From: an uncultured Porphyromonadaceae bacterium
Lineage (GTDB): Bacteria; Bacteroidota; Bacteroidia; Bacteroidales; Muribaculaceae
NCBI GenBank assembly: GCA_947177685.1
Contig: CAMWVE010000009.1
Location: 6,041-70,040 of the forward strand
DNA: 64,000 nt
Direction of reading: 5' to 3'
A program made the position numbers and the translations under genes. Positions 52,964-58,010 of this stretch are shown here, in pieces. The notes under the pieces were generated by a model, which saw only the letters and a program-made list of their open reading frames with translations, did no database searches and had not been told where the DNA came from. The first letter of the stretch is position 1. Every line of letters starts with the position of its first letter.

Positions 52964-54844
52964 TTACAACTCTACAAAGAAGGGTGCATTGTTCCTTGAA
53001 TTAGGTGCGAAAGATTTTCGTAAAGAAATCACATCATACATTGGATGCTCTTCAACTTCTTTTCCCATAAAATACAACACATAGCTTCTTGAATTTTTTG
53101 CATCCGGATAACCTTTATCAATCATTATATCAGAGTTGGCGAGAACCTGTTTTGTCGTATCAAGTTCATATACCGTGTATTCTATTGGATTATCTTTATC
53201 ATACAACAGAAGTCGTGAAGCCGCAATCATAAGACCTGATTTTTCAAGCGACCCATTCCTTTTACCCAACCTAATGTTATATAAGTGGTTATTCAAAATC
53301 CATTCTTTATGCTGTTTGTTTTTATAGCACCCCACCAGCATCATATCACTTTTAATGCGTGGAGTGTATTCAGGCATACTCTCAGCAGCAACAAGAGGGA
53401 ACGTACTATCTTCTAAATCATATTGTAGAAGAATAGGTTGTTTCTTCTTGGCTATTAGAACACTTTTTATAATATTATGCACTTGTTGCTCATAAGATCT
53501 ATTATTCGTTAAGTCGAAAGGCACAACCATTAAACTCAAACCGTATCTGTCAAGGATATCCTCATATACAAATTCAGGAAGTTGCTTGGTGAACTTTTCT
53601 GAATAGGGATATATTAATACCAATTTTGGTATAACTTCGTGTCCAGCTCTTGGAGTTTCACCCTGTCTATATTTTTGACCATAGGCATACATCTGATACA
53701 TATCTTTCATATCTATCAAATAGTTATGATCGGGATTATCTCCATCAATTGCTTTCCATTTAGTATCTAATATGATACACTCATAATGAGGGTTATTCTT
53801 GTCTGTCTCAACAACAATATCAGGTCTTAATCTAAACATACCCTTCCCATCAGAACGTCTATCCACTAAACAATACCTGGTATTCTGGGTTTGCGTTTTT
53901 AAGGATATGCTCCTATCATAAGTTGGTGCATATTTCTTAAACAAGTATGCGACAAAATTTTCAAACAATCTTTCAGCTTGGAAGAGCAGTGATTGATTAA
54001 CGCAAGCTCCAGAAAAGTTTGTAAATCCTTTGTTTAGAAGAAACTGTGAACTCCATTTAATCAATAACTCATAAGCAGAAAATAATCTGTTTGTTGAAAA
54101 TGAGAGCTTCAAATCCCGTTCAATATTGTTGCTTGAAGGAACATCTGACAAAAGACCTAACAATGCGGATATTCTTGCTTTGTTAGTTGTTGAATGACTA
54201 TCCTCATACAATTTCTGTAAGGTAGAAACTACAATCCTATTTTGTGGTATATCTTCAATATACTTATTATATTGTATGGCAAATCTTGACTTATTAACGA
54301 TATTTTTGGACAAATGTCTTGGAATATCAAGTTTCCCTTTCAGAAATCTTTGATTTTCAGAAACTCTTGAATAATTCTTTTTAATGCCTCCAAGTATCAG
54401 TTCCTCAACAGCTGCTATATAATTGGATATATATACTTCGAGAATTGGGAAATTCTTTCTTGTATCAAGACCTGCATTCTGAAATGATTTTGCACGTATA
54501 TCAGAAAAGTGTCTTAACATATTCAAAAACACCTTTCTACATGTCTCTTTGTCCTCTTCTTGTTTACCAGAAGATTTATAAATCTTTGGTAGTATTTCTA
54601 TTACTTGACCATCCTTGGTCTGAATAGTGCCTACATATCGACGTGTGCGTATATATCTTTTTCCACCACGTGTATGAACAGACATTATACTATCTGCATC
54701 ATCATTGGTATTATTAGATAAAATGAAATCCCATAGATTATCAAAGGTGAGCCTGGAAAGCGCAGTATCACCTTCTTTATGAGGTTGTTCCTCTATATAT
54801 AGGGTACCAAACTCATAGGTAATTATGGGTTTCTTTTGTCTCAT
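52964..54844 (-). CDS. McrC-like restriction endonuclease subunit (LlaJI R2-like)
   Basis: PD-(D/E)xK-like core RLRPDIVVETD...CIILDTKWK, as in McrC (D...D/E-x-K with TKxK). ATGA-type 4-nt overlap with the McrB-like gene. Confidence 0.75.
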   Translation of the reverse strand: MRQKKPIITYEFGTLYIEEQPHKEGDTALSRLTFDNLWDFILSNNTNDDADSIMSVHTRGGKRYIRTRRYVGTIQTKDGQVIEILPKIYKSSGKQEEDKETCRKVFLNMLRHFSDIRAKSFQNAGLDTRKNFPILEVYISNYIAAVEELILGGIKKNYSRVSENQRFLKGKLDIPRHLSKNIVNKSRFAIQYNKYIEDIPQNRIVVSTLQKLYEDSHSTTNKARISALLGLLSDVPSSNNIERDLKLSFSTNRLFSAYELLIKWSSQFLLNKGFTNFSGACVNQSLLFQAERLFENFVAYLFKKYAPTYDRSISLKTQTQNTRYCLVDRRSDGKGMFRLRPDIVVETDKNNPHYECIILDTKWKAIDGDNPDHNYLIDMKDMYQMYAYGQKYRQGETPRAGHEVIPKLVLIYPYSEKFTKQLPEFVYEDILDRYGLSLMVVPFDLTNNRSYEQQVHNIIKSVLIAKKKQPILLQYDLEDSTFPLVAAESMPEYTPRIKSDMMLVGCYKNKQHKEWILNNHLYNIRLGKRNGSLEKSGLMIAASRLLLYDKDNPIEYTVYELDTTKQVLANSDIMIDKGYPDAKNSRSYVLYFMGKEVEEHPMYDVISLRKSFAPNSRNNAPFFVEL

Positions 54845-56976: not shown

Positions 56977-58010
56977 ATCTTATAATTAAATTTTTCGTAA
57001 GCCTCAATCATATTATTCATTATGAGTTTTATGATTGGGACACTGACAGAATTACCAAGTTGTTTCAATGCTTGACAATCAGACACAGGCATTTTGAAAT
57101 TATCAGGAAATCCTTGTAATCTTTTTGCTTCTAATACGGATAGGCGCCTTCGTAGGTCCCATAATTTTGGTGTCCTATTTGCAATGATTGTTGGGGCGTA
57201 TGTATCCAAACAAGCATAAAAAGCTTCTTGTATTTGCGTTTTAGCATGATCTCCGACATGAAATCTTAAAGAACCGTCAGGTTTCTGGAAGGAAAAAATG
57301 CCATATTTTCCTTTTTTTGTGTTTGGAGCATATTTTGAGTTGTCGTGTTGAACACGTTCAACCTCATGACAGTGAGCAAAATGATAGTCTATTCTATCTA
57401 ATTCAAATTTAGGTAAAGTTAGTTCGGGGGACTGGTCATTAATATCAATAATATCCCTTAATGTTGGATGCCCCCCTAATGGTTCTGGGAATTCAAATGG
57501 TATATTGTCTCTAAATGCAACACAATACCATCTCTCTCTTTTTTGAGGTAATCCAAAATCTAATGAAGACAATACAGCCCAATGTGGATAATATCCTAAT
57601 TTTTCTAAAGAACTTATCACTGTGTTAAGTGTTTCCCCGTTATTGTGAGAAACAAGTCCTTTTACGTTTTCAAGAAAAACCATTGCTGGTTTGTGATAAT
57701 CAAGGATACGACAGATGTCAAAAAAGAGCGTTCCTCTTGTTTCATCTTGAAATCCTGCTTTTTCACCAGCATAGCTAAACGGCTGACAAGGAAAGCCTGC
57801 AGTTAATATATCAAAGGGTGGAATATCTTGTGCATTTACTTCCTTAATATTGCCAGTTGGTATTTCGTTAAAATTGGCATTATAAGTTTCTTGGGCAAAT
57901 TTATCTATATCCGATGAAAAAACACACTGTATATTGGAGTTCTCCATAGCCAAACGGAAACCTCCAATTCCACAGAAAAGGTCAATCCCTTTATATTTTT
58001 CCTTCTTCAT
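56973..58010 (-). CDS. DNA (cytosine-5)-methyltransferase
   Basis: Canonical motifs DLFCGIGGF (I), GFPCQPFSYAG (IV), ENVKGL (VI), PQKRERWYCVAF (VIII), LGNSVSVPI (X). 4-nt overlap with the McrB-like gene. Confidence 0.92.
   Translation of the reverse strand: MKKEKYKGIDLFCGIGGFRLAMENSNIQCVFSSDIDKFAQETYNANFNEIPTGNIKEVNAQDIPPFDILTAGFPCQPFSYAGEKAGFQDETRGTLFFDICRILDYHKPAMVFLENVKGLVSHNNGETLNTVISSLEKLGYYPHWAVLSSLDFGLPQKRERWYCVAFRDNIPFEFPEPLGGHPTLRDIIDINDQSPELTLPKFELDRIDYHFAHCHEVERVQHDNSKYAPNTKKGKYGIFSFQKPDGSLRFHVGDHAKTQIQEAFYACLDTYAPTIIANRTPKLWDLRRRLSVLEAKRLQGFPDNFKMPVSDCQALKQLGNSVSVPIIKLIMNNMIEAYEKFNYKI

Follow-up and report, generated by a model that had tools for sequence, protein, structure and literature searches.

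Organization of the operon

The stretch of 64,000 nt analysed here (positions 6,041 to 70,040 of contig CAMWVE010000009.1, assembly GCA_947177685.1, from an uncultured Porphyromonadaceae bacterium; hereafter the window) carries on its minus strand three open reading frames (ORFs), which code for a C5-cytosine DNA methyltransferase (MTase; 56973-58010), a McrB-like AAA+ protein (54841-56976) and a McrC-like nuclease (52964-54844). The original prediction had regarded these genes as a LlaJI-type restriction-modification (R-M) operon with 4-nt overlaps at both junctions, and with respect to the arrangement it is borne out by the ORF list and the junction sequences: as the MTase/McrB and McrB/McrC junctions read ATATGAGT and GAATGAGA, both are ATGA overlaps of 4 nt. 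The same proteins occur in the same gene order on two public contigs, a 75-kb metagenome contig in ENA and a Logan contig; a scan of genome contigs returned one locus. The catalytic motifs are all intact, and in length the ORFs agree with their homologues. The three proteins are composed as follows, all on the minus strand:

56973..58010, C5-cytosine DNA methyltransferase, 345 amino acids (PF00145, TIGR00675, core motifs)
56281..56976, N-terminal domain of the McrB-like protein, residues 1-232, an unannotated recurrent family (123 representatives; alignment A3)
55927..56280, helical linker module of the McrB-like protein, residues 233-350, between N-terminal domain and motor (similarity to protein P0153; separate matches)
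54841..55839, AAA+ GTPase motor of the McrB-like protein, residues 380-711, with C-terminal tail and stop codon (Walker A/B, NxxD, McrB lid)
53606..54844, McrBC/DUF2357 region and PD-(D/E)xK nuclease core of the McrC-like protein, residues 1-413 (PF10117)
~53759-53821, catalytic residues D342, D360 and K362 of the McrC-like protein (invariant in alignment A1)
52964..53347, extra conserved C-terminal domain of the McrC-like protein, ~residues 500-626 (alignment A4)

The MTase is the canonical enzyme that had been proposed. It matches PF00145 with an E value of 1e-87 at full length (profile positions 1-323 of 324) and the NCBIfam dcm model TIGR00675 with 2e-87, and possesses all core motifs (FCGIGG, PCQ, ENV, QKRER and GNSV), with motifs I, IV (PCQ), VI (ENV), VIII and X in the order canonical for the Dcm/M.HhaI type. 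The similarity to M.HhaI amounts to ~199 bits over residues 7-200. A GCGC specificity borrowed from this likeness was rejected because the target-recognition domain (TRD, ~residues 200-286) differs from the M.HhaI one and fails to align.

The McrB-like protein (711 amino acids) matches Pfam AAA_5 at residues 382-570 (3e-12) and NCBIfam McrB at residues 382-645 (3e-30), while its best counterparts in the PDB are McrB of Thermococcus gammatolerans (6ut3, 5e-55) and of Escherichia coli (6hz4, 6e-30). Walker A (GPPGTGKT) and the NxxD signature (MNTADRS), both noted before, are accompanied by Walker B (LLCIDE) and the McrB lid (PF28529), the set of features (Walker A, Walker B, Nx(x)xD, McrB lid) by which a McrB of the McrBC superfamily is recognized. 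A search with the full-length protein retrieved more than 3000 homologues that have only the motor in common with it (44-63% coverage, 53-77% identity) and carry unrelated N-termini. The linker (residues 233-350) is 39% identical to the N-terminus of protein P0153, where it precedes another AAA_5 ATPase; residues 222-350 are matched separately in P0175, P0184, P0189, P0204, P0205 and P0233.

The McrC-like protein (626 amino acids) matches PF10117 McrBC over residues 65-413 (2.6e-73) and T. gammatolerans McrC (6ut5_G) with 1e-10. Its predicted PD-(D/E)xK site, P341-D342...D360-T-K362, is invariant in the homologues, and a DUF2357/McrBC region with an intact site of this kind is what characterizes a McrC of the superfamily. 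Beyond the reach of Pfam McrBC the protein continues into an additional conserved domain with the motif MLVGCYK..H.EWI..N.LYNIRLG...SRLLLY...YP...PFFV, which is kept in six of the related loci introduced below (L003, L004, L016, L018, L024 and L027), whereas L014 and L020 have a McrC without it. Neither the A4 profile against the PDB nor a Pfam scan returned a match to this domain, and an AlphaFold2 single-sequence model of residues 447-626 was unusable (31.7 in pLDDT, the predicted local distance difference test). PADLOC gave weak REase_II matches to the AAA core only and no match to the McrC-like protein.

Linkage and co-variation of the methyltransferase

Gene neighbourhoods were compared for every relative that could be retrieved and, after duplicates had been merged, twelve distinct locus types with DNA upstream remained, the window included, in which the McrB N-terminus is other than a reader of 5-methylcytosine (m5C). 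In all twelve (12/12), one or two C5-MTase genes of the same strand precede the McrB/McrC pair directly:

Window, N-terminus of the ~230-amino-acid family, one C5-MTase upstream
L003/15, N-terminus unrelated to the others, one C5-MTase upstream
L004-6, N-terminus unrelated to the others, one C5-MTase upstream
L014/19, very short N-terminus (~56 amino acids), one C5-MTase upstream
L016, N-terminus related to that of L018, two C5-MTases upstream
L018, N-terminus related to that of L016, two C5-MTases upstream
L020, N-terminus unrelated to the others, one C5-MTase upstream
L024, N-terminus of the window's family, one C5-MTase upstream
L026, N-terminus of the window's family, one C5-MTase upstream
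L027, B3-like N-terminus, one C5-MTase upstream
L032/33, HTH_73 N-terminus, one C5-MTase upstream
L035, BpuJI_N-like N-terminus, two C5-MTases upstream

The single MTase, which had appeared as an anomaly, is thus the usual state (9/12), and where two are present (L016, L018 and L035) they stand in tandem and upstream. A sister locus, on the other hand, carries the m5C reader MrcB_N (DUF3578) on a motor of the window's own clade (55-56% identity) together with a long McrC (630 amino acids), and has no C5-MTase within 6 kb.

The identity of the MTase follows the N-terminus of the McrB-like protein. In the loci closest to the window the McrC is 61-82% identical, the McrB N-termini are unrelated and the MTases are 23-39% identical (80% for McrC and 26% for the MTase in the case of L003). 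L024 and L026, which have the McrB N-terminal family in common with the window, possess MTases 63% identical to that of the window over 330 amino acids, although their McrC is only 49% identical to that of the window. Similarly, L016 and L018 are 79% identical in the N-terminus and 60% and 64% identical in the two MTases. Both N-terminus-related pairs rank within the top three of 45 pairs ordered by MTase similarity when L024 and L026 are treated as one (p ~0.003 by our own count). Judged from these alignments, MTase similarity appears to track, if imperfectly, the McrB N-terminal family and not the motor or the nuclease, and the comparisons support the view that the MTase truly belongs with the McrB/McrC pair as a conserved partner.

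Several features of the sister loci are worth recording in their own right. A Vsr gene is found ~2 kb upstream of the MrcB_N sister loci (L030, L031 and L034) on the opposite strand and may be the remnant of a lost MTase or be tied to an unrelated Dcm elsewhere; in L004, Vsr is located directly upstream of the MTase. A small ORF of 49-66 amino acids, possibly coding for a controller protein, abuts or overlaps the MTase start in L024 (5543-5743), L026 (2696-2845), L027 (5761-5928) and L032 (4649-4849); the 172-nt MTase leader of the window contains no such ORF. The McrC of L018, a locus with two MTases, is split at 6405-8256 into ORFs of 101 and 514 amino acids by a frameshift or stop, which would mean decay of the nuclease with the MTases persisting, or by an assembly error.

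The N-terminal domain of the McrB-like protein

The McrB-like N-terminus had been described as free of any recognizable reader motif. Its residues 1 to ~230 turn out to constitute a recurrent family: an exhaustive HMMER search (E<1e-3) found 123 representative proteins that share this region, always at the N-terminus. The family had escaped a word-indexed homologue search with residues 1-380, in which P0153 was the sole match. Among 118 family matches, 76 bear a motor of the LlaJI-R1 type, that is, one closest to the ATPases adjoining Pfam RE_LlaJI genes, 19/118 a canonical motor as in the window, and another 19/118 are stand-alone proteins of ~220 amino acids. The latter (including P0159, P0165, P0176, P0185, P0210 and P0231) may act in regulation or as second recognition subunits. 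In some sister loci a free-standing copy of the resident McrB's N-terminal recognition domain also lies between MTase and McrB, as in L004 (2700-3278, with McrB at 3289-4929), where the small ORF and the McrB N-terminus of its own locus share 32% identity over 196 amino acids. An equivalence of the L003 and L004 small ORFs with a portion of the long N-terminus in the window was considered but rejected for lack of similarity.

Residues 1-380 gave no match in Pfam (including PF20731), PHROG or the PDB, and the family profile (A3) likewise none in the PDB or in a Pfam scan. The modified-base readers MrcB_N, YTH and EVE do not match the window N-terminus, hhalign finds the family unrelated to the B3-like N-termini (probability 0.06%), and a tblastn search of plasmids with a family member returned nothing. 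Among the sister proteins, the N-terminus of P0078 is B3-like, of the NgoFVII type, and matches R.NgoAVII (4rd5) at 1e-5, and that of L035 is BpuJI_N-like and accompanied by two MTases, the number that an asymmetric site calls for. By these matches the sister N-termini are sequence-specific readers apparently borrowed from type II enzymes. Because such readers occupy the same position in the sisters, the N-terminus of the window protein is by analogy best read as a swappable DNA-recognition module, predicted to be sequence-specific, and would recognize the site of the MTase in its unmethylated state.

Proposed mode of action

The conserved linkage, the co-variation of MTase and N-terminus and the MTase-less sister locus with its m5C reader together make it probable that the operon encodes a methylation-protected, GTP-dependent R-M system of the McrBC type, located on a Bacteroidales genomic island. 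The C5-MTase would methylate a specific short sequence in the DNA of the host, which the McrB-like protein would bind through its ~230-amino-acid N-terminal domain as long as it is unmethylated, methylation blocking the binding. The AAA+ GTPase ring would then join McrC and translocate DNA, whereupon the PD-(D/E)xK site of McrC would cut, presumably at a distance from the target. With the MTase gene first and ATGA coupling at the junctions, the methylase would be made together with or before the nuclease. By sequence, the motor and nuclease chassis belongs to the canonical McrBC lineage, and recognition domain plus MTase would form a swappable specificity cassette.

The alternative that has to be weighed first is a true type IV McrBC, the N-terminus of which would read a foreign modification such as hydroxymethylcytosine, glucosyl-hydroxymethylcytosine, N6-methyladenine or N4-methylcytosine, with the adjacent MTase being functionally independent or no more than an orphan or anti-restriction methylase. 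This is what the canonical lineage of motor and nuclease (PF10117, NxxD, TgMcrB and EcMcrB as nearest relatives) would suggest, the MrcB_N-bearing sister locus is plainly of type IV, and an N-terminal domain without characterized relative would fit as well. The ATGA-coupled MTase is, however, present in each of the twelve locus types without a modified-base reader and absent where such a reader is found, it travels with the N-terminal family across distant motor and nuclease backgrounds, and the B3-like and BpuJI_N-like sister N-termini are type II sequence readers. Moreover, translational coupling of an m5C MTase to a nuclease that depends on m5C would be expected to be self-lethal. We therefore consider the type IV alternative unlikely.

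Some observations nevertheless weigh against a methylation-protected R-M system. The MrcB_N negative control comprises but one locus type, found on three contigs, and tracking is imperfect, as the MTases of L024 and L032 are 52% identical though their N-termini differ. No homologue of the N-terminal domain has a known function, the AlphaFold2 single-sequence model (residues 1-380) reaches a pLDDT of 33.8, and DNA binding is proposed from position and analogy; the target site and the effect of methylation on binding are likewise predictions. Finally, at the level of sequence the locus falls outside LlaJI, the one experimentally characterized family.

If the R-M reading is extended to the relatives, the locus would represent a widespread, uncharacterized family of R-M systems built on the McrBC chassis in gut Bacteroidales. 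In this proposal, which as a whole we advance tentatively, judging it slightly less probable than its negation, (a) the GTPase motor and the long McrC with its additional domain would stay constant and take up interchangeable specificity cassettes; (b) the cassette would consist of a C5-MTase and a reader of the ~230-amino-acid family or of the B3-like, BpuJI_N-like or HTH_73 type; (c) the chassis would become type IV by gaining an MrcB_N reader and losing the MTase; and (d) the N-terminal family would be a novel sequence-specific, methylation-sensitive DNA-binding fold that occurs also on motors of the LlaJI-R1 type.

To our knowledge, McrBC-type enzymes with R-M logic are experimentally known from few systems only (LlaJI, LlaI and BsuMI). 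The loci compared here would amount to a natural experiment in which one chassis is directed, by exchange of the N-terminal reader, to the cutting of unmethylated sites when combined with an MTase or of methylated DNA when combined with MrcB_N. The window locus and its relatives make the rules of McrB N-domain specificity amenable to testing, as well as the part played by the additional domain of McrC, and MTase-McrBC systems probably act as obstacles to the genetic manipulation of gut Bacteroidales and to horizontal transfer among them.

Genomic context and neighbouring genes

The following additional features surround the operon:

58182..58189, minus strand, TAACTTTG, candidate -7 promoter element of the Bacteroidota type, located ~172 nt upstream of the start codon (ATG) of the MTase
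51347..52960, minus strand, fourth co-oriented ORF, 537 amino acids, no known domain (ORF list; domain scans)
51305..51345, no strand assigned, inverted repeat or terminator-like hairpin (GGCGGATGA...TCATCCGCT), read from the sequence
49320..51269, plus strand, atypical convergent C5-MTase, 649 amino acids (motifs; PHROG match)
32123-36988, island, double helicase (DEAD + UvrD) of 1621 amino acids
38898-40238 and 58981-60315, island, two tyrosine integrases
40380-41024, island, serine resolvase
44166-45359, island, WYL-domain protein
46205-48934, island, helicase/primase-like protein of 909 amino acids

From the MTase start up to the divergent HTH_17 gene, TAACTTTG is the sole element of its kind on the minus strand; it might serve as the operon promoter. 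In line with the Bacteroidales-like character of the window, the Bacteroidota -7 box TAnnTTTG is enriched in it (75 occurrences versus 53 +/- 6 expected), with no minus-strand match just upstream of the McrB, McrC or 537-amino-acid ORF starts; sigma-70 promoter and terminator scans remained at or below chance. The hairpin, located in the 77-nt gap between the convergent 537-amino-acid ORF and second MTase, is likely the 3' end of the operon; a terminator-like match at 51332-51345 is no higher than the chance rate for the region.

Housekeeping genes (ackA/pta, proCBA) stop at ~32.1 kb of the window, and a ~28-kb island (32123-60800) extends from there between proA and the NADAR/PfkB genes, with the operon adjoining the right-hand integrase/HTH_17 pair (58688-60315). 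No tRNA genes are present in the window. The island probably consists of two tandem integrative elements or represents a defence island. On its chromosomal flank, a minus-strand cluster (60833-62927) codes for a NADAR-domain protein (198 amino acids), a PfkB-like kinase (308 amino acids) and a domainless protein of 185 amino acids, the first two genes being 17 nt apart and the last two overlapping by 4 nt. Far from the operon, two divergent giant ORFs (11706-22703; 2095 and 1513 amino acids) with NAGPA phosphodiester-glycosidase and ASH/Ig-like domains adjoin an MBOAT/DHHW O-acetylation cluster and probably code for cell-surface proteins.

The fourth tightly packed ORF, overlooked in the original prediction, starts 3 nt after the McrC stop (TAAagtATG). 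As it is co-oriented, present on both contigs with the system and devoid of a promoter-like TAnnTTTG immediately upstream, its product could be required by the McrBC-like complex as an additional subunit or effector, which would make this a four-component system. The gene is, however, found in none of the related MTase-McrBC loci compared. Its homologues (43-54% identity, ~30 clusters) stand alone in conjugative elements of Bacteroidales (L007-L013), where they lie between traG and a different, type III-like R-M/DndD-like cassette, each with its own divergent HTH_3 gene of 80 amino acids. A four-component system is consequently the least probable of the explanations considered; the gene is probably co-transcribed with the operon, yet no conserved component of it, and may serve independently in defence or in maintenance of the element.

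The convergent MTase had been suggested to supply the methylation of the other strand, as in a two-MTase, LlaJI-style system with an asymmetric site. It is a second C5-MTase only 1.7 kb from the operon, is kept on both contigs with the system and has intact catalytic motifs. Its architecture is unusual, with a ~130-amino-acid insertion between motifs I and IV, PCP in place of PCQ, a very short stretch of ~55 amino acids separating motifs VIII and IX, and a C-terminal extension of 200 amino acids with the TRD-like stretch WNRVLSPNGICSTITKT, to which the TRD may have been relocated. Among the related loci compared, none has a convergent MTase downstream of McrC: nine of the twelve types manage with one MTase, and those with two have them in tandem upstream. 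In addition, the 537-amino-acid gene, an independent module elsewhere, intervenes between operon and convergent MTase, which itself best matches the phage MTase family phrog_116 (4e-53); a scan of viral sequences for this enzyme returned no locus. Its participation in the system is hence very improbable and, as the related loci are all without a gene of this kind, it is probably a gene of the island that is independent of the operon.

Comparison with known systems

LlaJI possesses two m5C MTases next to the subunits R1 and R2 and acts against unmethylated DNA (PMC1459862), with R1 combining a B3 domain and a McrB-like NTPase and R2 carrying a PD...D/ExK site (PMC12707154; PMC7680126). As in LlaJI of Lactococcus pNP40, and also in H. 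pylori LlaJI, the MTase leads a co-directional operon in which a McrB-like NTPase, equipped with a specificity domain at its N-terminus, comes before a PD-(D/E)xK partner, and the N-terminal family of the window resides mostly on LlaJI-R1-type motors (76/118). On the other hand, the window operon has one upstream MTase where LlaJI has two, a B3 domain is not detected in its McrB N-terminus by Pfam, PDB sequences or hhalign, and its McrC has the extra C-terminal domain. For sequence comparison, RE_LlaJI-family operons from B. mycoides and L. curvatus plasmids stood in for pNP40 LlaJI itself. The window motor is 26% identical to the RE_LlaJI-adjacent ATPase of L028 (79 bits), whereas TgMcrB and EcMcrB score 190 and 107 bits, respectively, and BLASTP detects no similarity between the window McrC and the RE_LlaJI protein of L028 (E = 0.33), which itself matches PF09563 at 3e-52. 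The profile comparison by which the original prediction was to be checked gave McrBC (PF10117, NCBIfam McrB) and not RE_LlaJI (PF09563). Because the motor is only 26% identical and McrC is without similarity to the R2-type protein, membership in the LlaJI family is not supported. Of the predicted LlaJI-type system, R-M logic and MTase partnership are supported by linkage, co-variation and the MrcB_N control, but family membership is not; the locus therefore appears LlaJI-like in operation yet outside the LlaJI family, a canonical McrBC chassis plus an MTase. As a separate observation, L024 contains a 592-amino-acid RE_LlaJI-family gene of its own (12138-13916; PF09563, 3e-50), 1.5 kb downstream of the operon, after a Fic gene and without an adjacent AAA ATPase.

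With type IV McrBC of E. coli K-12 and T. gammatolerans, which are its best matches in the structural database, the window locus shares the NxxD AAA+ GTPase, the McrB lid and a McrC with DUF2357 and PD-(D/E)xK. It differs from these by an N-terminus without match to a modified-base reader and by the coupled, conserved C5-MTase, and it is far from the NCBIfam equivalog cut-offs (105 versus 637 bits and 82 versus 338 bits).

The LlaI and BsuMI systems, here compared by description only, likewise combine McrB-like NTPase-based restriction with cognate m5C MTases (PMC1459862). The sisters L003 and L004 resemble these three-gene cassettes in having an extra small ORF between MTase and McrB, whereas the window is without a separate small subunit because its recognition domain is fused to the motor. 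The B3-like recognition domain of NgoAVII and CglI recurs on a sister McrB (P0078). These NTP-dependent R-M enzymes are also paired with m5C MTases. In contrast to the window system, they use a PLD nuclease and a different ATPase, and the window protein has no B3-like domain.

A further correspondence is with the branch of NxxD McrB-like GTPases and McrC that is contextually tied to predicted DNA methyltransferases, an association described as prevalent and probably ancestral, the mechanism being left to a later publication (Bell et al., 2024; PMC11090510). In gene content and NxxD motif the window locus belongs to this branch. The part of that census considered here flags MTase-linked McrBC as abundant without describing them, and does not cover the Bacteroidales subfamily, the long McrC or the N-terminal family. 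The locus is, accordingly, neither a new type of system nor a new principle, but an uncharacterized member of an already recognized class.

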